In this document: in pieces, positions 6,638-51,640 of the stretch
Position numbering within the stretch: the stretch's first letter is position 1
Layout of the letters: the number at the start of each line of letters is the position of its first letter
Origin: a virus
Length of the DNA stretch: 64,000 nt
Strand: one strand, 5' to 3'
Virus record (IMG/VR): IMGVR_UViG_3300048687_000113
Location: 1 to 64,000 of that record
Made by a program: the position numbers and the translations under genes
Notes under the pieces: generated by a model
The model's input: the letters and a program-made list of their open reading frames with translations, nothing else
Database searches by the model: none
Told to the model about the DNA's origin: nothing

Positions 6638-7206
6638 CCTACTCCAGCCGTGCCGGCGCCAACTCCAACCTGTCCTACAACCCGCCCTACCAGGGCGGCC
6701 CGGTTTCCGGCGGCACCACCTACACCGGCGGCAGCGGCGGCTACCTGATGACCGGGGCCCGCGACATCCTCGACGCCCGCCGTCTCATGGAGACCGGGCA
6801 CACCCCGAGCGCGGAGTACCCGGACGGATACCTCGGCACGATCGGCAGCAATACGCGGCGCCAGGACCGGCTCCTGGACCAGATCGGCAACCGCGCCACG
6901 CAGAAGTCCTACCAGCGTGGCGTGCACAAAGGGGAGCGCATCGACCCCGCCGATTACTACTGGACCGACGACGTCCACCCGAGCGCCGGGCTTGAGGCAC
7001 AGGCGCGCGGCGAGAAGTGGACGCAAGCCGGCTCGATGATCGGGTCGCCGCTCGTCAACGACGGCAAGAGCGAGACCCTCGTCGCCACCCAGGCCCGCTT
7101 CGCCACCGCGCAGCGCGTGTACACGCAGGAAGTCACGCCGCCGTTCACCGCCGTCAACGAGCAGCGTCGCGCCCAGTTGCAGCGTTTCCGCCCGGCGTGG
7201 AGGTGA
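6634..7206 (+). CDS. Phage hypothetical protein (YQRGVHKGERID motif)
   Basis: ATGA overlap; well-formed ORF. Confidence 0.75.
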   Translation: MTYSSRAGANSNLSYNPPYQGGPVSGGTTYTGGSGGYLMTGARDILDARRLMETGHTPSAEYPDGYLGTIGSNTRRQDRLLDQIGNRATQKSYQRGVHKGERIDPADYYWTDDVHPSAGLEAQARGEKWTQAGSMIGSPLVNDGKSETLVATQARFATAQRVYTQEVTPPFTAVNEQRRAQLQRFRPAWR

Positions 7207-7209
7207 GCT

Positions 7210-7503
7210 GTGCTTTCCCAGGACTCGATATACGCACGTCGGCCGTGGTCGTCGCTCCAGGAACAGCAGGTCACCAACTATTTGCGTGAGTGGACTGACC
7301 TGCCGCCGGACGCCGCTCGCCGTATCAAGCCGCCGGTGCCCAACATCGGCAGGCTGCCGCCTCGGTTCGGCTACCGCCAGCACACCCCGACCATCGACGA
7401 CATCGCCCGCCTGGACACCGTCTACCCCGGCTCCCGCGTCGACTACAGCCAGCGCCAGTCCGGGTATTCCGCGACCTCTTATCCCGCTCTGGGAGTGATC
7501 TGA
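7210..7503 (+). CDS. Hypothetical protein
   Basis: GGAGG RBS, GTG start. Confidence 0.7.
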   Translation: MLSQDSIYARRPWSSLQEQQVTNYLREWTDLPPDAARRIKPPVPNIGRLPPRFGYRQHTPTIDDIARLDTVYPGSRVDYSQRQSGYSATSYPALGVI

Positions 7504-15128: not shown

Positions 15129-15370
15129 TGATCGTCCCCGCCCACCTCGCGCCCCGCCGCTTCCGCCTCATCCGCACCGACGACGTTACCGGCGTCTCCG
15201 GGCCAGGCCACGTCGCCGACGGCGTCCAGTGGCCCGACGGCACCTGCGCCGTCCGCTGGCGCACCCAGATCGCCACCCACGCCCTCTACGACGCCCTCGA
15301 CCACGTCGAGCACATCCACGGCCACGACGGCGCAACCCACATCGAGTTCGTCGACCCGCGCCAGGACTGA
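15128..15370 (+). CDS. Phage hypothetical protein
   Basis: D.TGVSG.G.VA.GV.W.DG..HGH.G pattern; TGATG coupling. Confidence 0.75.
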   Translation: MIVPAHLAPRRFRLIRTDDVTGVSGPGHVADGVQWPDGTCAVRWRTQIATHALYDALDHVEHIHGHDGATHIEFVDPRQD

Positions 15371-15373
15371 CCC

Positions 15374-15562
15374 ATGGCCATGTCCCGCAAGCACTACCGC
15401 GCCCTGGCCCAAGTCCTGCGCCAGGCCCGCGAGTACTACCCCGACGACCAGACCTGCATCGACTTCGTCATGCGCGAACTGGCCGACGCCTGCGCCCGGG
15501 ACAACCGCTCGTTCCGCCGCCAGCAGTTCTACGACGCAGCCACCCCGGAGCCTTCGACATGA
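15374..15562 (+). CDS. Small phage protein
   Basis: MSRKHY...DNRSF..QF..A pattern. Confidence 0.7.
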   Translation: MAMSRKHYRALAQVLRQAREYYPDDQTCIDFVMRELADACARDNRSFRRQQFYDAATPEPST

Positions 15563-17058
15563 TCATGTACTTCGCGGGCGCGGAAATCCCCTCCCACCGC
15601 AACCTGCTCGCGGCCGAAGACGTCCCGCACGTCGGCATGAGCTACATGGGGCTCCGCCGCCGCGTGAAGTTCAGCAAGCCGTGGGCCATCGCCGAGCACT
15701 ACACCCCCCAGCAGTCAGTGTTCCTGGACAGTGGCTGCCACACACTCAACCGGCCCGGCGTCGAAGTCACCACCGGAGAAATCCAGGACATCGCCACCCA
15801 CTACGACGAATTCGTGGAGCAGAACCTGGACCGCGTCCAGGCGTACGTCGAATTCGACGCCCTGCCCATGGGCCGCGACTGGATTGAATCCCGCCGCCAG
15901 CACCTCGACCCCGAAAAAGCCATCGTCGTCTGGCACGAGGAATGGGGCCTCGACGTCCTCAAGCAGATGGCCGACCAGTGGCCCTACATCGCGGTGGGAC
16001 AGGGCACCTGCGGCGACCGCGACATCATCCCCACCCTGCGCTCCATCAGCCGCACTATCCGCCTGCACGGCATGGGCTTCAGCTCCCCGCCGCTCATGCT
16101 CTCCGCCGACTGGTACTCCGTCTCCTCCACCACCTGGCTCAGCGCCGCCCAGCACGGCGAGACCTTCATCTGGGCCGGCAACGAGATGAAGCGCTACCCC
16201 GCCCGCTACAAGGCTCAGGCCCGCAAACGCCACCGCACCCTCATCACCGGCAACGGTTTCGATATCGACCGCATCGAAGCCGACGACGCCACCGAGAACC
16301 TGCGCCTCTCCTTGTGGTCGTGGCGCCGCCAGATCGACCACATTTCCCAGCGCCAGGGCAACGGAGTAACTGACACCACCCCACCCCCCACACCCGGAAG
16401 CAGGGAAAGCAGTGCCCCCACAGTTACGGCGACCTCTCCAGGAGAGCAGCACGAGGGGGTAACTGAACCGCCTGCCACACGAGTGAAGAAACTCCTCCCC
16501 GGCATCGAAACCGAGGAGTTCACCCACCGCTACACCGACCCCGACAGCGGGGAACGCCAGACCCGAACCGAGCACCGCATCAACGCCGTCGACCCCGGCG
16601 TCCGCGTCTGCGACGGCTGCTTCCTGGCCCAAAAATGTCCCGAGTACCAGCCCGGGGAATCCTGCGCGTACGAAATGCCTGTGCGCGTGCGCACCAAGGA
16701 GCAATACATCGCGCTGCTCGACTCGATGATCAGCATGCAGGCCATGCGCGTTTTCTCGATGCGCATGTCAGAGGAGGTAGAAGGCGGGTACGCCGACCCG
16801 AATCTCTCTTCCGAGATGGACCGCCTCGCCAAGTACGTGAAGTTGAAAAGCGACATCGAAGAGGCCGGCTTCAGCTTCTCGATGAAGATGCAGACGAAGG
16901 ACAACGCAGAAGTCGGGCTCATCTCCCGCCTCTTCGGCCCCAAGTCGGATGGGCCCCCCGCGCTGTCCGACGCCGGGACAGTGTCATCCGAATCCGCCCT
17001 GGCCCAGATGGGCATCGTGGACGCGGAAGTCGTCGAGGAGCCCGAGCGAAGGGAGTAA
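15559..17058 (+). CDS. tRNA-guanine transglycosylase/DpdA-like domain fused to a Cys4 domain
   Basis: YFAG, FLDSG, EFD, VWH, LHGMG, SVSSTTW; C-terminal CDGC-x4-C-x8-C. Confidence 0.65.
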   Translation: MIMYFAGAEIPSHRNLLAAEDVPHVGMSYMGLRRRVKFSKPWAIAEHYTPQQSVFLDSGCHTLNRPGVEVTTGEIQDIATHYDEFVEQNLDRVQAYVEFDALPMGRDWIESRRQHLDPEKAIVVWHEEWGLDVLKQMADQWPYIAVGQGTCGDRDIIPTLRSISRTIRLHGMGFSSPPLMLSADWYSVSSTTWLSAAQHGETFIWAGNEMKRYPARYKAQARKRHRTLITGNGFDIDRIEADDATENLRLSLWSWRRQIDHISQRQGNGVTDTTPPPTPGSRESSAPTVTATSPGEQHEGVTEPPATRVKKLLPGIETEEFTHRYTDPDSGERQTRTEHRINAVDPGVRVCDGCFLAQKCPEYQPGESCAYEMPVRVRTKEQYIALLDSMISMQAMRVFSMRMSEEVEGGYADPNLSSEMDRLAKYVKLKSDIEEAGFSFSMKMQTKDNAEVGLISRLFGPKSDGPPALSDAGTVSSESALAQMGIVDAEVVEEPERRE

Positions 17059-47281: not shown

Positions 47282-47608
47282 CTACGGCGCCGGCAGCACA
47301 TCCGTTTCGACGTTCTCGACGAGCCGCACGATGTCGGCCGGCCGGATCGGGCGTTTCTCGCCAGTGGCTTCCCAGCGAGTGCGCGGGCCGTGGAGGACCA
47401 GGAGCGGGGACATCTCCTCGCCGTCGTCGTACACCGGGAACTCCCGCTTGCGCACATCGCCCAGGGCAAGTGACAGGGCGTATGCCGTGATGGTGGACAG
47501 CGGGAGGCCGTTCGGTCCTCTTACGGGCTCGTGCCGCCGACCGGCCCACCGGCAGATGGCGTCGGCTTCGGCCTGCGTGACGCGCTTAAGTGTGAGATCC
47601 GGGCTCAT
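47282..47608 (-). CDS. Hypothetical protein (probably leaderless)
   Basis: TACCGT -10 six nt before ATG. Confidence 0.6.
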   Translation of the reverse strand: MSPDLTLKRVTQAEADAICRWAGRRHEPVRGPNGLPLSTITAYALSLALGDVRKREFPVYDDGEEMSPLLVLHGPRTRWEATGEKRPIRPADIVRLVENVETDVLPAP

Positions 47609-47806
47609 GCCTCAACGGTAGGCCGGAGAGGCGCCGTTCAAGTGCGGTTCGTTCGACCCCAGCTCGACCGCAGAAAGGCCGGCGACCCTCGACGGGGGTG
47701 GCAAGGGCCGCCGGTGTGTGAGGGCCGGCCGCCCAGCCCCGAAGGGCCCCCACGAGCAGCCGACAGCTCCGACGGTACAGCGTCACGAGTGGGTCAGGAT
47801 GGCCGT

Positions 47807-48079
47807 ATGAACTCAGAACCCGGCCCCAAGCCCGAGGGCCTGCTGCTCTCCCCGAGCGACGCCGCCATGCTCGCCTGGTTCGTTATCGACGACGTCGAGC
47901 GGCTCACGATCGAGGAGGCCGCCGGCAAGCTGGGCGTGAGCCCTGAGACGGCTCGGGTGATCATTTCCAGGGCAAAATCGAAGCTGCGCCGCTACGCGGG
48001 CACGCACTGGCCGCTCCCGGCGGGTGACCCCACAGAGGTGGTCGGGGATTTCTCGACCGATGCGGGGCCTACGCCTTAA
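47807..48079 (+). CDS. Sigma-70 region 4-like HTH protein
   Basis: LTIEEAAGKLGVSPETARVIISRAKSKLR. Confidence 0.75.
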   Translation: MNSEPGPKPEGLLLSPSDAAMLAWFVIDDVERLTIEEAAGKLGVSPETARVIISRAKSKLRRYAGTHWPLPAGDPTEVVGDFSTDAGPTP

Positions 48080-48378: not shown

Positions 48379-48544
48379 AGCTCCAAGAAAGCACCGAGGA
48401 GCTACAGCCGGCGTGGGCCTCCACACAGCTCCAAGAAAGCAGCGAGGAGCTGCTGCCGGTGGTGACCGCCATGGGTAGCTCCAGGTTCCAGTCAAGGAGC
48501 TAGCGGTCCCGCCGACGGAACCTCCAAGGATCAGCCGAGGAGGT
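48379..48544. repeat. Four 25-bp palindromic units A(G/C)CTCC-N13-GGAG(C/G)T with unique 18-25 bp spacers
   Basis: Units at 48379, 48427, 48477 and 48520. Confidence 0.8.
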
Positions 48545-48557
48545 TCCGCTGGGGAGG

Positions 48558-48944
48558 TTAGCGCGTGCCCTCTGCTGCGGGCAGGGCCGGTGTCTGGGCG
48601 ACGCGGCCCTTGCGGACGCGGCGGCGGTGCCGGCGCTCGGCTCGACGGTTTTCCTTCGGGTTCCATCCGAGAGGGTGGTGCCACGGCTTGCGGACGTTCA
48701 CGCACTCGTCCGGGGCGTAGTAGCGCGGGTCGTCGGGCCGGGTGCGGGGACGTCGTGTGAGGCAGAGGCGGCAGGCGCTGAGGTTCTGGTCGTCGAGGTG
48801 GGTGCGGGCCCTGTCGAAGAAGTGGGCCAGGATCTCCGCGTCCCGCTGGGCCTGCTGTTCGGGGGTGAGCGGGGGGTGGGCGGCTCGGTATGCCTCGCCC
48901 CAGCGGGTGAGTAACTCGCCGACGGTGATGGTGTGTTGGCTCAT
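48558..48944 (-). CDS. Basic hypothetical protein (probably leaderless)
   Basis: TACATT -10 six nt before ATG. Confidence 0.65.
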   Translation of the reverse strand: MSQHTITVGELLTRWGEAYRAAHPPLTPEQQAQRDAEILAHFFDRARTHLDDQNLSACRLCLTRRPRTRPDDPRYYAPDECVNVRKPWHHPLGWNPKENRRAERRHRRRVRKGRVAQTPALPAAEGTR

Positions 48945-48948
48945 GGCG

Positions 48949-48988
48949 GCAATGTAGTGCGCACGCAGTTGCGTACGCACTACATTGC
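48949..48988. promoter_or_regulatory. 40-bp palindromic operator/promoter with tandem TGCGTACGCA-like boxes
   Basis: GCAATGTAGTGCGCACGCAGTTGCGTACGCACTACATTGC. Confidence 0.75.
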
Positions 48989-49011
48989 GTTGAAGTTGGC
49001 CTGTTGCGGGT

Positions 49012-49338
49012 TCAGGCGGAGCGTTGGGAGCTGGCGCGGAGCTGGGCGACGACCAGCTCGTGGGCGGCTTCGGCCTCGATGACGGTGCAGGGGTGATGGC
49101 CGGCCCACTCGTCTCGCCAGCGGTTGTTGCGGCAGACGCCGGTGTGGAACATGCTGCCGGCGCCTACCACGCCGGAGTCGATTCCTTCCCACATGGTGCG
49201 CACGAGGAGGTCGTCGACTTCGGTCTCGGCCACCAGGCGGTACTCGATGTCGGCGAAGAGAACGGCCCACTCCATCACGGCCAGGGGCCGGCCCTCCTTG
49301 TCACGGTGGCAGATTCGGTCGGTGGTCTGCTCGTGCAC
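49012..49338 (-). CDS. Phage hypothetical protein (same family as 52207-52647)
   Basis: AGGAGGAG RBS; GRP...L.ADIE.R...VRT...A...H pattern. Confidence 0.7.
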   Translation of the reverse strand: MHEQTTDRICHRDKEGRPLAVMEWAVLFADIEYRLVAETEVDDLLVRTMWEGIDSGVVGAGSMFHTGVCRNNRWRDEWAGHHPCTVIEAEAAHELVVAQLRASSQRSA

Positions 49339-49424
49339 TGCTCCTCCTGGCTGGGATTTTGCGTCGCGTCGCCTGCCGGGGCGCAGGCTCCGCCGGCCCC
49401 ATGTTGGGTGAAGTGCCTGCCCGT

Positions 49425-49446
49425 TGTCAGTCGTGCGTGCCATAGT
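49425..49446 (+). promoter_or_regulatory. Candidate promoter of the CRISPR-like array, PafBC/RecA-NDp-like
   Basis: TGTCAG-N10-CATAGT vs TGTCGG-N10-TANNNT. Confidence 0.4.
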
Positions 49447-49470
49447 GGTTGAGCCGTCGGGAAGTTGGGC

Positions 49471-49854
49471 GGTCTCCCCGCGCGAGCGGGGGTGTACCGG
49501 TTGAAAGGCACGGCCGCGCTGTTGCCTGGATACTTTCCCCGCCGACGCGGGGGTGGTCCTTCTTTGTGTTTGATTGCAGGTAGGGATCTTGATTTGACCC
49601 CGCGCATGCGGGGATGGCTCGATTTCTAAGGGCATAGCACGATGTTCCCCGCGCAAGCGGGGATGGCCCCGCAGTTGAGAGAGCCAGTACTTGCTCCCCG
49701 CACACGCGGGGATGGTCCTGTAGTCAAGAGGGCTGGTATTTGCTCCCCGCGCACGCGGGGATGCTCCGCTTCGGCGGAGGTGGATCGAAACGGCATCTCG
49801 TGAGAGGTCCCTGAAGATCTCAGAAAACCGCTCCGCACACGCGGAGGTACGCGG
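49471..49854 (+). CRISPR. Orphan degenerate type I-E CRISPR-like mini-array (8 repeat hairpins)
   Basis: 29-nt repeats at 49471, 49532, 49593, 49642, 49691, 49740, 49759 (overlaps previous) and 49826; stem CCCCGC-N4-GCGGGG or CTCCGC-N4-GCGGAG; spacers 32, 32, 20, 20, 20 and 38 nt. Confidence 0.9.
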
Positions 49855-49890
49855 AAGGCTCGTCTCCTGGGGAGGCGGGCCTTTCGTCTT
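49855..49890 (+). terminator. Intrinsic terminator closing the array
   Basis: AAGGCTCGTCTCC-TGG-GGAGGCGGGCCTT followed by TCGTCTT. Confidence 0.7.
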
Positions 49891-49947
49891 GCCTGGGATG
49901 TCGGGGGTGTTGGGGATGCGCGGTTTGGCATATGCCAACTCGTGACT

Positions 49948-49970
49948 GTGCGTACGCAGTTGCGTGCGCA
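49948..49970. promoter_or_regulatory. Tandem TGCGTACGCA operator, copy 2
   Basis: GTGCGTACGCAGTTGCGTGCGCA. Confidence 0.7.
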
Positions 49971-50091
49971 GCCACTACCTTCGTGATACGCGCCACATCG
50001 GCCCGGGGAGCGGTCCCGGCCAACGGGTGCGCGGCGCGGGGACGGTCTGCCGGAGTGCGGGCAGGTCGTGACGTTCGGCAGGAGGTTCCCG

Positions 50092-50517
50092 ATGGGTTCG
50101 GTAGACCAGCTCCACAGGATGCTCGGTGAGGTCAACCGGTTGGAGGGTTACGACCCGAGAGCGCCGAAGCTGCCGGCGGTGCCTGCGCACTGCCGCCGGC
50201 ACGGGACACCCTACTCGCCGCAGGACACCATCAACGGGCTGTTGTGCTGCGCCTCGTGCCTGGCGGAGTCGGATCTGAAGCGGTACGAGGAGTCGAAGCA
50301 TGAGCGAGACGGTGATGAGCTGGGAGGCGGCGCGGAGGCTGCTGAAGCGGGACCCGGAGGCGGTGGTGTCGAGCCTGTCGTGGGCGCAGCCGGGCAAATG
50401 CATTTTCAGAGCCAAGGCGTTCGTGGTGGTGCCGGCGGCGGCGATCACCAAGGAGGAGCCGGTGGGCGCGATGCCGATCAGCGAGCAGGAGAGCATTCCG
50501 GCGCTGTGGTTCCGTGA
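50092..50517 (+). CDS. Hypothetical protein with Cys/His motif
   Basis: AGGAGG RBS; C.RH...CCASC; 3' part overlaps the next gene. Confidence 0.5.
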   Translation: MGSVDQLHRMLGEVNRLEGYDPRAPKLPAVPAHCRRHGTPYSPQDTINGLLCCASCLAESDLKRYEESKHERDGDELGGGAEAAEAGPGGGGVEPVVGAAGQMHFQSQGVRGGAGGGDHQGGAGGRDADQRAGEHSGAVVP

Positions 50518-50608
50518 CCAGGCGGGGCGGGTGGGCCCGTATGCCGGTTCGGCGTTCGGGGATGAGCGTGATGACTGGGTGGTGGGGCCGTCGGTCGGCG
50601 ATTCCTGA
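50300..50608 (+). CDS. Hypothetical protein
   Basis: GAGGAG RBS. Confidence 0.6.
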   Translation: MSETVMSWEAARRLLKRDPEAVVSSLSWAQPGKCIFRAKAFVVVPAAAITKEEPVGAMPISEQESIPALWFRDQAGRVGPYAGSAFGDERDDWVVGPSVGDS

Positions 50609-50639
50609 CGCGGTGCGGGCCGCAGCCTCTTTTGTGCTG

Positions 50640-50702
50640 GCCCCGCAGGTGTGTCGTCCTCCCCCGGCCGGCACGCCTGCGGGGTCTTTTTGTGTCTTTT
50701 TT
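50640..50702 (+). terminator. Intrinsic terminator
   Basis: CCCCGCAGG/CCTGCGGGG stem and long T-tracts. Confidence 0.75.
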
Positions 50703-50746
50703 CGCGGTGGGACGATTGCGGTCAAATGCCTTGTAAGGAGACCGGT

Positions 50747-51640
50747 ATGGCCGTGACGAGTTCCGCGACGTTGTCCGCTGGTGAAGTGCCGGCCGAGGTT
50801 TCGGTGGAGGTTGTTTCCGATACGAGCGTTCGGGTCTCCTGGACGAGTGCGGAGGACCCGCTGGGCTTTGTCGTGGCGTGGTCGGTCGCCGGCGCGGAAG
50901 CCTGGACGGAGCGGCAGGTGTCGGGGGGCGCGCGGAGCCTGGTGGCGACGGGGCTGCGGCCGGGGACGGGGTACGTGTTCCGGGTGCAGTCCGAGTCGGT
51001 CTGGAGTACGGAGGCCGGCGCGGAGACGACGGGCTCGACGCTCGGGGCGCCCACGCTGCTCGTGGGCGACATCCTGGACCGCAACGCGAGTGTGAGTGTG
51101 CTGTCCCCATTCCTGGTGAGCCAGGCGCGTGTCGTCGAGGCGCAGGTGCGGGACACCCGGACGGACAGTCCCTGGTATTCCGTCTCGGATGTGCCGTGGA
51201 ATCTGGCGGCGGTGGGTCTGTATGAGACGGGGTTCGGGCTGAAGGGGCTGTCGACGGGAACCACGTATGCGGTGCGGGCCCGGGTCACGGCCGGCGAGGT
51301 GGTGTCGGAGTGGTCGCCGGAGACGCGGTTCACGACGACTGGGACCAGGAGTGGGAAGCCGAGCCTGTCGGTGGTGGCGGACTCGGCGACGTACAGCTCG
51401 GTGAAGCTGACGTGGGGGACGTCGCTGAAGGCGACGGTGCGGATTCACCGGTGGGTCAGGTCGACGTCGCCGGGCTCTCCGTTCCTGTCGCAGCAGGTCG
51501 GGTATTCCACGGACCTGGCGGGGACATTCACGGACTCGGGTCTGTCCCAGGGGACGGACTATTGGTACACGGTCGAGTGGGTGCGGGATTCGCGGACGAT
51601 CAGTGTTTCGAATCCTGTTGCTGTACGAACGCGGGGCTAG
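50747..51640 (+). CDS. Fibronectin type III domain protein
   Basis: VRVSW...TGLRPGTGYVFRV; about three FN3-like domains; AAGGAG RBS. Confidence 0.8.
   Translation: MAVTSSATLSAGEVPAEVSVEVVSDTSVRVSWTSAEDPLGFVVAWSVAGAEAWTERQVSGGARSLVATGLRPGTGYVFRVQSESVWSTEAGAETTGSTLGAPTLLVGDILDRNASVSVLSPFLVSQARVVEAQVRDTRTDSPWYSVSDVPWNLAAVGLYETGFGLKGLSTGTTYAVRARVTAGEVVSEWSPETRFTTTGTRSGKPSLSVVADSATYSSVKLTWGTSLKATVRIHRWVRSTSPGSPFLSQQVGYSTDLAGTFTDSGLSQGTDYWYTVEWVRDSRTISVSNPVAVRTRG

Follow-up and report, generated by a model that had tools for sequence, protein, structure and literature searches.

A putative multiplexed Cracr array in a temperate Streptomyces phage, with units that resemble host type I-E cas-regulating mini-arrays

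We report herein that positions 49425-49890 of a temperate Streptomyces phage, judged from sequence, probably hold a multiplexed viral Cracr array, that is, an RNA counter-defence directed against several Streptomyces lineages of the type I-E CRISPR system; we put the chance of this reading at about 70%. Viral Cracr RNAs and arrays have been described by Liu et al. (bioRxiv 10.1101/2024.10.29.618823). In that work, a tested type I-E Cracr array of a Salmonella prophage represses PcasA, a guide is assigned to the class when it shares at least nine PAM-proximal bases with a host CreR or CreA guide, and the mechanism combines cas repression with sequestration of Cas proteins (10.1101/2024.10.29.618823). 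The host type I-E CreR was described separately (10.1101/2023.03.10.532045), and shortened spacers yield Cascades with fewer Cas7 subunits (PMC5159557). The concept of a Cracr array is already published, and the array presented here is not new in kind.

Setting and layout of the array

The window (the whole stretch of DNA analysed, 64,000 nucleotides) belongs to a virus record of 109,243 bp, a temperate Streptomyces-type myovirus with genes for a terminase, a tail sheath, a baseplate and a serine integrase. The array occupies the gap at 49339-50091 between two divergent orphan genes, one at 49012-49338 on the minus strand and the other beginning at 50092 on the plus strand. The absence of a cas operon from the window, observed in the initial annotation, extends to the whole record, in which a Pfam Cas7e search found no cas genes and a tblastn search with eight type I-E Cas protein queries, including the cas1 region, gave nothing (best E 0.045). 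A cognate cas operon elsewhere on the element, which that annotation had named as the mark of an ordinary decayed array, was thus looked for in the entire 109 kb and not found. The array is virus-borne and lies outside any CRISPR-cas locus, as Cracr arrays do. Its surroundings (48500-51000) had no match in the phage database, relatives of the flanking proteins were absent from the viral contig set, and Pfam and PHROGs searches with the four nearest open reading frames returned nothing. An Rfam search of the window at gathering thresholds was likewise empty, and at a relaxed threshold its sole match was a weak one of CRISPR-DR28 to the fourth repeat (27 bits, cut-off 35).

Eight differing 29-nt type I-E repeats lie in one orientation at 49471-49854 on the plus strand. 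Six of them carry the stem CCCCGC/GCGGGG: R1 (49471-49499, loop GCGA, 3' handle GTGTACCG), R2 (49532-49560, loop CGAC, handle GTGGTCCT), R3 (49593-49621, beginning with TTTGACCCCGC, loop GCAT, handle ATGGCTCG), R4 (49642-49670, loop GCAA, handle ATGGCCCC), R5 (49691-49719, loop ACAC, handle ATGGTCCT) and R6 (49740-49768, loop GCAC, handle ATGCTCCG). The other two carry the stem CTCCGC/GCGGAG, namely R7 (49759-49787, loop TTCG, handle GTGGATCG) and the last repeat, R8 (49826-49854, loop ACAC, tail GTACGCGG). The eight starts, both stem types, the eight loops and the eight 8-nt 3' tails all agree with the initial annotation. Hairpins of the form CCCCGC-N4-GCGGGG occur in the window only as the six array copies, where 0.05 would be expected from shuffles, and the whole 109,243-bp record holds no further copy.

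In sequence the repeats come near to CTGCTCCCCGCnnnnGCGGGGATGGTCCC, the canonical I-E repeat of Streptomyces, which adjoins cas3-cas2e on plasmid NZ_CP120984, and differ considerably among themselves (pairwise identity, 48-90%). R4, R5 and R6 are identical to one or another Streptomyces array repeat at 27, 28 and 27 of 29 positions, respectively, and R7 agrees at 22 of 29 positions with a host repeat ending in CTCCGCGAAGGCGGAGGTGGACCG. R6 and R7 overlap by 10 nt with no insert between them, such that the handle of R6 is the 5' stem arm of R7, and this overlapping junction recurs in a Streptomyces prophage (G205) and in phage contig L042. Host-type repeats with intact 6-bp stems and 8-nt handles surround spacer-like inserts, as in a Cracr array, where the first repeat keeps the 5'-handle portion and the second the hairpin.

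The inserts measure exactly 32, 32, 20, 20, 20 and 38 nt, as had been noted, and all are read from the plus strand. These are psiS1 (49500-49531, 32 nt, seed GTTGAAAGGCAC), psiS2 (49561-49592, 32 nt, seed TCTTTGTGTTTG), the three 20-nt inserts psiS3 (49622-49641, ATTTCTAAGGGCATAGCACG), psiS4 (49671-49690, GCAGTTGAGAGAGCCAGTAC) and psiS5 (49720-49739, GTAGTCAAGAGGGCTGGTAT), and psiS7 (49788-49825, 38 nt, seed AAACGGCATCTC). psiS4 and psiS5 stand in a diverged tandem duplication whose 49-nt units share 76% identity, and the two inserts, read by eye, agree at 13 of 20 positions, with all seven differences being transitions. A homologue of the psiS1 unit with the same flanking repeats is found in phage contig L042, where the seed reads GTTGACGAGCAC, and phage contigs L043 and L032 carry TAGTAAGAGGGCTG guides to which psiS5 is, by eye, related. 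A canonical immune array would have nearly identical repeats and unique spacers of one length, and either cas genes in cis or spacers matching mobile elements. The array of the window is not of this kind: its repeats are only 48-90% alike, its inserts are 20, 32 or 38 nt long, two of these are diverged duplicates, cas genes are lacking, and phage databases match only its repeats.

A conserved block at 49425-49451 on the plus strand (TGTCAGTCGTGCGTGCCATAGTGGTTG, which holds TGCCATAGT) precedes the repeats. Its conservation suggests the role of a promoter, and it includes a -10-like CATAGT at 49441-49446 with a TG three bases upstream. The block is identical in the array of the G205 prophage and unchanged in a closer relative, X3, and a similar block, GTGCCATAGT, stands upstream of the arrays in the unrelated phages L047, L059, L073, L100 and L109. 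The candidate promoter of the initial annotation thus retains a block conserved in two relatives, although a sigma-70 consensus scan found no promoter at the array. Directly after R8, as that annotation had it, is a terminator-like element (49855-49890, plus strand) made up of a 13-bp hairpin with the loop TGG and a U-rich tail, TCGTCTT; a simple terminator scan missed it because the tail has four rather than five T in eight positions. The G205 prophage keeps the hairpin, its stem altered by a compensatory pair (AAGGC..GCCTT versus AGGGC..GCCCT), and most other phage arrays also have a strong hairpin after the last repeat. In the minimum-free-energy fold of the whole transcript different repeats pair together, and the fold is little informative.

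Conservation and recurrence of the design in other phages

X3 is a 91%-identical relative, represented by one contig at a depth of about 2. The X3 counts that follow are drawn from the changes listed, and five further substitutions lie outside that listing. Among the changes listed, none falls in the 96 stem bases and 45 fall in the 288 other bases of the array (p 1.5e-6), with the loops taking four changes in 32 bases. In psiS1, psiS2, psiS3 and psiS7 together, positions 1-12 are unchanged (0/48) while the distal positions have 23 changes in 74 (p 2e-6, changes listed). Among these same listed changes, all six in psiS1 are at positions 15-32, those in psiS2 are confined to positions 25-31, psiS3 is altered at position 14 alone, and all 12 in psiS7 are at position 13 or later. 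The repeats follow a similar course, again among the changes listed: R1 keeps its stem and has one handle change, at 49495; the sole substitution in R2 is in the loop (49544), with one base inserted in the 5' flank behind 49534; the sole change in R3 is in the loop (49607); and those in R8 are confined to the 5' flank and the loop. The seed of psiS4 differs in X3, and psiS5, once the listed changes are applied, acquires the seed of the window's psiS4. A 151-nt contig of X1, which seemed to skip 49617-49740 (with 36 other letters between), was rejected as a variant of the locus; it is a different array that shares repeats.

The Streptomyces prophage G205:C2 carries a homologous array at 30% protein-level divergence from the window phage. 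Its array differs from that of the window by entire units, of 61 and 49 nt, and by a single step of exactly 12 nt, the homologue of psiS2 being that much shorter (20 instead of 32 nt). In the psiS3 homologue the first 12 nt are identical (12/12) and the last 8 nt agree at 3/8, and the homologue of psiS7 is 37 nt long. The I-E locus of the G205 lysogen has no match to the guides of its prophage or of the window. G045, G152 and G135 also encode homologues of P0003, with no array in the 5 kb around these. As a side observation, closer homologues of P0003 and P0005 are found on Streptomyces contigs.

Comparison of the related elements revealed no broken stems (for X3, among the changes listed), and the whole-unit differences and the exact 12-nt step in G205, together with the stems and seeds kept in X3 and G205, bear out the suggestion of the initial annotation that the array is under selection rather than in random decay. 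Its further statement that only the processing determinants are preserved has to be given up, as conservation extends to the guides, over their first 12-14 nt. From its sequence, the array is not decayed.

Repeat pairs of the array type occur in 98 viral contigs. The inserts in other phages cluster at 14, 20-21, 27 and 32-33 nt, and among those with I-E handles 59 of 72 within the searched range measure 20-21 nt. The stepping of spacer lengths by 32 +/- 6n, first remarked in the window, is genuine: a difference of exactly 12 nt separates homologous guides, and inserts of other phages cluster at set lengths. An exact seed with an AAC or AAG PAM was found in casA-upstream regions for nine of 122 phage guides, against 1.5 (maximum 6) in 200 shuffles, and several of these nine fit both the host guide and the host target exactly. 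Exact sharing of at least nine PAM-proximal bases with a host guide is seen in like-built arrays of other phages. In the guide family AG..T.AGGGGC, positions 1-14 are mostly conserved and positions 15-20 are not. The other array-bearing phages show no synteny with the window phage. Cultured Streptomyces phages, Piccadilly and its relatives (host, S. sanglieri), carry a similar array; that of Piccadilly (NC_073489) has six repeats and lies between gp53 and gp54.

Host cas-regulating mini-arrays and searches for targets

In Streptomyces I-E loci we found 36 CreR-like mini-arrays, each with a guide/target pair. The guides are 14, 20-21, 32-33 or about 37 nt long, the targets lie upstream of casA next to a PAM of AAC, AAG or AAT (AAN), and guide and target are mismatched at positions 6 and 12. 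In 14 of 80 Streptomyces I-E loci the mini-array follows cas3 directly and runs on the other strand from the cas genes, and all 14 of these guides match a site about 350 nt away with the PAM AAC. With ten scored seed positions (1-5 and 7-11), each of the 14 matches at nine or ten; outside these, a mismatch stands at position 12 in every case and at position 6 in the majority. The immune arrays of the hosts are very different in spacing, a 61-nt interval being found in 3081 of 3373 cases (intervals under 130 nt) and a 49-nt interval once. About 42% of the sampled Streptomyces genomes have a I-E casA; this tally takes in genome G132, on which the other results do not rest.

Several units of the window resemble these mini-arrays. 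psiS3 is similar to the guides of host class A: it is identical to the L161 guide at 14 of 20 positions and to the L150 guide at 12 of 14 (mismatches at positions 2 and 6), and it matches the casA-upstream target of L150, AAC-AGTTCAAAGGGAAT, at nine of the ten scored seed positions, with the mismatch at position 2. psiS2 resembles the guides of class D (CTTCTnTGTTTG...), with which it shares positions 5-12, and the 5' part of R3 resembles the second repeat of class D mini-arrays (TCGACCCCGC). R7 is a repeat of the type seen in host class C mini-arrays, and R7-psiS7-R8, with its CTCCGC stems and 38-nt guide, resembles that class and its guides of about 37 nt. Of what the initial annotation offered, the involvement of several I-E families finds support in units that resemble three classes of host mini-array, and a role as short regulatory guides finds support in the likeness to host cas-regulating guides, which fall into the same length classes (14, 20, 32 and about 38 nt).

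Searches for the targets themselves were less productive. They gave an exact target for none of the six guides, the best being that of psiS3, with one mismatch, in one host. The 177 casA-upstream regions examined offer no recognisable counterpart to psiS1, psiS4, psiS5 or psiS7, and psiS3 and psiS2 have no exact PAM-flanked cas-promoter site in about 800 Streptomycetaceae genomes. The patterns AAN+psiS3 and AAN+psiS2 gave three matches in 401 Streptomycetaceae genomes, none near cas genes. Two are psiS3 seed matches and were dismissed, both lying inside unrelated coding sequence (KISKG motifs); the single psiS2 match lies between ABC-transporter genes and is at the level of the reversed control. 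In L157 the psiS4 seed is matched exactly (10/10) at a site that lacks a PAM, a match no better than chance. Within the genome of the phage itself no guide finds an exact seed match beside a PAM, and the phage databases match the array in its repeats only. The search of spacers against hosts, cas promoters and phages, as advised in the initial annotation, thus yielded the likeness of psiS3 and psiS2 to host cas-regulating guides but no exact cas-promoter or phage match.

Proposed action, alternative readings and comparison with known systems

We propose that 49425-49890 would be expressed as one non-coding transcription unit of the phage, a chain of crRNA-like modules in which a 5' repeat, the source of the 8-nt handle, is followed by a guide and then by the hairpin of a 3' repeat. 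Every module would mimic the repeat type, seed and guide length of the CreR-like mini-array found beside casA in one I-E lineage. In an infected or lysogenic I-E cell, the host Cas6e would cleave the transcript at the hairpin bases, and we infer that the products are loaded into host Cascade, where they would displace immune crRNAs. About 11-14 paired PAM-proximal bases would then keep Cascade on the casA promoter with no cleavage of DNA, and short guides would give Cascades with fewer Cas7 subunits. The outcome would be that the host CRISPR genes are turned off and the Cas proteins soaked up, and the joining of modules for at least three recognisable I-E classes in one string may widen the host range of the counter-defence. 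A bolder version may be entertained tentatively, with the odds against it: the array may act as a master key, each module fitting the repeat class, seed and guide length of one I-E lineage, with lengths of 14, 20, 32 and 38 nt (all 2 mod 6) giving Cascades of 3, 4, 6 and 7 Cas7 subunits that bind without licensing Cas3, while psiS1, psiS4, psiS5 and psiS7 steer Cascade to silence further genes of the host, for instance those of CRISPR-guarding toxins or of different defence systems.

The array might instead be a pure decoy of the Racr kind, its repeat hairpins of several I-E families titrating Cas6e and Cascade and its inserts having no targets. The stems are indeed its most strictly conserved part (0/96 in X3, changes listed), the insert-less R6/R7 junction recurs in other phages, the searches yielded no exact target of the window's guides, and solitary-repeat RNA anti-CRISPRs are established (PMC10651486). 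What a pure decoy leaves unexplained is the contrast between seed and distal changes in four inserts (0/48 versus 23/74 in X3, changes listed), the 12 of 12 seed positions of psiS3 kept across 30% protein-level divergence, and the likeness of the inserts to host regulator guides. We therefore regard it as rather improbable and, because the published mechanism combines both effects, as more a sub-case than a true rival.

A slightly smaller chance is given to hijacked guides with other targets, be they promoters of CRISPR-linked toxins (creT type), further defence or metabolic genes of the host, rival phages (superinfection exclusion) or genes of the phage itself. Four of the six guides lack a cas-promoter counterpart in the sample, virus-borne mini-arrays against other viruses are known (PMC6858448), and Cracr RNAs against creT promoters have been described (10.1101/2024.10.29.618823); yet the phage's own genome offers no PAM-flanked exact seed match, the phage databases match only the repeats, short guides conserved only in the seed do not accord with interference against rival phages, and psiS2 and psiS3, for which a placement is possible, resemble cas-regulating ones. 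I-E arrays that are orphaned or degenerate are frequent in the genomes and plasmids of Streptomyces, and a host-captured, functionless array in decay would be one more of these. Decay of a single array would not yield eight repeats that all differ (pairwise identity, 48-90%) and resemble more than one I-E repeat class, and 20- and 38-nt inserts are nearly absent from host arrays. Moreover, two relatives keep the promoter block, the stems, the seeds and the terminator while loops and distal guides drift, and the same design is found in many unrelated phages. We consider this last reading very improbable.

If the multiplexed Cracr array works as proposed, it would be more highly multiplexed than any other RNA-based counter-defence array so far seen for type I-E, and actinophages would routinely carry such arrays. 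Since about 42% of the sampled Streptomyces genomes have a I-E casA, the matter is relevant to Streptomyces genetics and to phage work. The set of 36 cas-regulating mini-arrays from Streptomyces, each paired with its promoter target, is a by-product that may prove equally useful, and host guide lengths stepping by six would link the Cas7 periodicity of Cascade to natural regulatory guides. Piccadilly and its relatives, being cultured, make the idea testable at the bench.

The I-E Cracr array of the Salmonella enterica Se29 prophage has much in common with that of the window. Both are phage-borne and lie outside a cas locus, both set degenerate I-E repeats around short guides with several guides per transcription unit, both have guides like those of host CreR, which target the casA promoter with an AAN PAM, and in both the modules seem aimed at variants of one CRISPR type. 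On the other hand, the window has six guides and eight repeats, whereas the I-E Cracr arrays reported have two or three spacers; its modules differ in repeat class too (CCCCGC and CTCCGC stems; handles GTGTACCG, ATGGCCCC and GTGGATCG); guides of 20, 32 and 38 nt stand in one array and mirror the length classes of host regulators; modules of different class are joined by a spacer-less overlapping junction; and the host is Streptomyces. In addition, the window's array is known from sequence, and psiS3, and less clearly psiS2, only approach the sharing of at least nine PAM-proximal bases by which Cracr guides are recognised.

Host CreR and crlRNA mini-arrays (10.1101/2023.03.10.532045; Shmakov et al., 10.1101/2023.03.03.530964) consist of two degenerate repeats and a guide partly complementary, on the PAM-proximal side, to the casA promoter, and the handle, guide lengths and seeds of the 36 Streptomyces mini-arrays are the same as in phage modules. 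The host elements are single modules beside cas3 or casA that regulate their own locus, whereas the window has a chain of modules on a cas-less phage with no target nearby. The virus-borne mini-CRISPR arrays of Medvedeva et al. (2019, PMC6858448) are similarly cas-less and dependent on host Cas proteins; their spacers are of full length and match rival viruses, in contrast to the window's guides, which are short or conserved only in the seed and have no match in the searched phage databases. Finally, the window's array shares with Racr (Camara-Wilpert et al. 2023, PMC10651486) the mimicry of repeats by a phage without cas genes, and both would bind Cas6 and Cas7. Racr is a single guide-less hairpin; in the window, an effectively guide-less repeat is found only at the R6/R7 junction and in the terminal R8. 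Thus, Racr comprises solitary repeats that act by sequestration alone, whereas the window's repeats are arrayed around guides whose seeds appear to be under selection.

The array and its phage setting

The virus record, which derives from a soil metagenome, is a 109,243-bp genome rated complete by CheckV, and the window (G+C of 66.5%) is its first 64 kb. It encodes a large terminase, a tail sheath, a baseplate, a serine integrase and a DpdA-like enzyme; the terminase is 56% identical to its counterpart in Streptomyces phage BRock and relatives, and both genes flanking the array have homologues in Streptomyces genomes. The array (49425-49890, plus strand) sits where two divergent orphan genes, at 49012-49338 (minus strand) and from 50092 onward (plus strand), leave 750 nt between them. 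Re-examination bore out every detail of the initial annotation: eight 29-nt repeats (R1-R8) with eight different loops and eight 8-nt tails, stems that read CCCCGC/GCGGGG in six repeats and CTCCGC/GCGGAG in two, and guide-like inserts (psiS1, 2, 3, 4, 5 and 7) of 32, 32, 20, 20, 20 and 38 nt. R6 and R7 share 10 nt. In sequence the repeats belong with those of Streptomyces type I-E systems, and the hairpin motif is absent from the remainder of both window and genome. The window was also said to lack a cas operon, and no I-E cas gene was found in the full 109,243-bp record. Among the sequencing runs listed as containing the array, none is an RNA run.

Several other features were observed in the window. 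A 609-aa protein (15229-17058, plus strand) matches phrog_887, the phage queuine tRNA-ribosyltransferase (DpdA-like) family (E 2e-70), and suggests that the phage modifies its DNA with 7-deazaguanine, which would give this genome another counter-defence. A 23-nt near-palindrome, GTGCGYACGCAGTTGCGTRCGCA, is present twice (48957-48979 and 49948-49970, 91% identical), flanking the gene at 49012-49338 together with the array, and a perfect palindrome, TTGGCATATGCCAA, lies directly ahead of the second copy (49925-49938); these look like putative operator sites for a regulator of the divergent region. A 182-aa open reading frame (47531-48079, plus strand), with a sigma-70 region 4 match just under the Pfam cut-off (E 4e-5) and matches to PHROG sigma-factor families, lies about 1.4 kb from the array; it may encode a phage sigma-like factor and might be relevant to the array's non-consensus promoter.

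Constraint on stems and seeds

The array had been claimed to be selected rather than decaying. It was compared with two relatives: X3, a contig from another public run that spans 49300-49960 at about 91% identity, and a homologous array in a prophage of Streptomyces genome G205, where the neighbouring protein is 70% identical to that of the window. When the listed differences of X3 were mapped onto the array, none of 96 stem bases was changed, versus 45 of 288 in the rest of the array (p 1.5e-6); in the loops, 4 of 32 were. In psiS1, 2, 3 and 7, positions 1-12 were unchanged (0/48) versus 23 of 74 distal positions (p 2e-6). This comparison rests on one contig at a depth of about 2 with five substitutions unlisted, and the contrast is still significant (p 0.008) if all five are placed in the four seeds. 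Unlike these guides, psiS4 and psiS5 carry seed changes; once the listed changes are applied, the psiS5 seed in X3 is the one that psiS4 has in the window, a pattern suggestive of turnover rather than drift.

In G205, the upstream block (49425-49451) is identical and the terminator hairpin is maintained through a compensatory pair of changes. The two arrays differ by whole modules (61 and 49 nt) and by a single, exact 12-nt indel that leaves psiS2 with 20 nt in place of 32, while psiS3 retains 12 of 12 seed bases and 3 of 8 distal ones. The difference patterns in both relatives thus indicate constraint on the stems, handles, guide seeds, promoter block and terminator, and none on loops and distal guide parts. 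Judged from these alignments, the array is under selection, not decayed, and the earlier claim stands.

Host mini-arrays and their counterparts in actinophages

In 80 Streptomyces I-E loci, immune arrays have a 61-nt period in 3081 of 3373 intervals below 130 nt, and a 49-nt period once. Fourteen of the 80 loci contain a solitary mini-array directly past the cas3 stop, on the strand opposite the cas genes, in which a guide of 20-21 or 32-33 nt lies between a first repeat that ends in GGGGATGGCCCC and a second one (CTGCTCCCCGC...). All 14 guides match a site about 350 nt off, toward casA, adjoining an AAC PAM; of the ten seed positions scored (1-5, 7-11), nine or ten agree. Every one of the 14 has a mismatch at position 12, and most have one at position 6; these positions are reported as not paired by type I Cascades (Shmakov et al., 10.1101/2023.03.03.530964). 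Guide and target co-vary from locus to locus. A further 100 casA-upstream regions, out of 401 Streptomyces genomes (167 with casA), added a class with 14-nt guides, handle GTGTTCCC and PAM AAN (AAG, AAT or AAC), class D with 32-33-nt guides (CTTCTnTGTTTG...), a second repeat starting TCGACCCCGC and PAM AAT/AAG, and class C, in which the stems are CTCCGC and the guides about 37 nt long. The guide/target pairs number 36, each a self-target upstream of casA with PAM AAC, AAG or AAT, mismatches at positions 6 and 12, and guides of 14, 20-21, 32-33 or about 37 nt (for example, at L135, about 6997-7400, L225, L220 and L258). By eye, several targets overlap a TANNNT -10-like hexamer. These 36 mini-arrays, a set not found in the literature compared here, are CreR-like cas regulators, as known for Salmonella I-E (10.1101/2023.03.10.532045) and from Shmakov et al. 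(10.1101/2023.03.03.530964). Host guides, at 14, 20, 32 and about 38 nt, are separated in length by multiples of six, and six nucleotides is the Cas7 step in I-E Cascade (PMC5159557).

The window modules resemble several of these classes. PsiS3 (20 nt, handle ATGGCTCG) is identical to host guides at 14 of 20 positions (L161) and 12 of 14 (L150); nine of its ten scored seed positions also agree with the target upstream of casA in L150, which adjoins AAC. PsiS2 and R3 resemble class D guides and the class D second repeat, and R7, psiS7 (38 nt) and R8 agree with class C in their stems and in guide length. PsiS1, psiS4 and psiS5 have relatives in phage arrays (L042, L043 and L032) and none in the host sample; exact searches with psiS3 and psiS2 in 401 further genomes gave unrelated hits only. 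Plausibly, one repeat can serve two adjacent modules when both are of one class but not when class A is followed by class C, so that R6 and R7 abut; their overlapping junction is also present in the G205 prophage and in L042. A spacer-less junction of the same kind recurs in IMG/VR contigs L020, L045, L073, L100 and L109, where a repeat ending in handle GTTTCCCC overlaps the next (GGTTTCCCCGC...) by 9-10 nt; the leading repeat has a CTCCGC stem in at least three of the five.

When IMG/VR was scanned for pairs of such hairpins spaced 44-54 nt apart, 98 contigs emerged, mostly of 64-74% G+C, many with cas-less arrays of variant I-E repeats, a strong hairpin after them and often GTGCCATAGT before. 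Inserts with I-E-type handles are 20 or 21 nt in 59 of 72 cases inside the searched range, and mainly 14, 27-28 or 31-33 nt beyond it. Exact seed matches with an AAC or AAG PAM in host casA-upstream regions were found for 9 of 122 phage guides, versus 1.5 (maximum 6) for shuffled ones, and several phage guides match both a host guide and the target of that guide. The AG..T.AGGGGC guide family is conserved over most of positions 1-14 and not over 15-20. These phages have no synteny with that of the window, and the design is common in actinophages.

Two further arrays were observed. Streptomyces phage Piccadilly (NC_073489, about 34.6-34.9 kb; L302 1440-1730) has an unannotated array between gp53 and gp54, with six variant I-E repeats and inserts of about 21-33 nt; the region is matched in phages Ignacio, Vondra, Cumberbatch, Eastland and HFrancette. 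These are cultured phages of S. sanglieri, and would offer a ready experimental system. Plasmid NZ_CP070374 (Streptomyces sp. MBT27, 130 kb, circular; L011 11771-12075) likewise carries six variant I-E repeats in a cas-less array. The inserts measure 35, 19, 32, 29 and 14 nt, a terminator hairpin comes immediately after, and the annotation shows no cas gene for 12 kb around.

Relation to viral Cracr arrays

Cracr RNAs are phage crRNA-like copies of host CreR/CreA that compete for Cas proteins, make the effector repress its own promoter and are often stacked in arrays; Liu et al. list sixteen two-spacer and four three-spacer I-E arrays, and tested one from a Salmonella prophage (bioRxiv 10.1101/2024.10.29.618823). 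In the hosts sampled, the window array nearly, but not quite, shows the nine or more PAM-proximal matches to a host guide by which Cracr RNAs are recognised, because cognate hosts are absent from the samples searched. Given this near match, and a fit in where the array lies, how it is built and how it resembles host regulators, it is probably a viral Cracr array, a kind already known. Some modules may have targets other than cas promoters. Compared with the known arrays, to which it is alike in those three respects, the window element is bigger: it has six guides, and more than one repeat class and guide length are combined in it.
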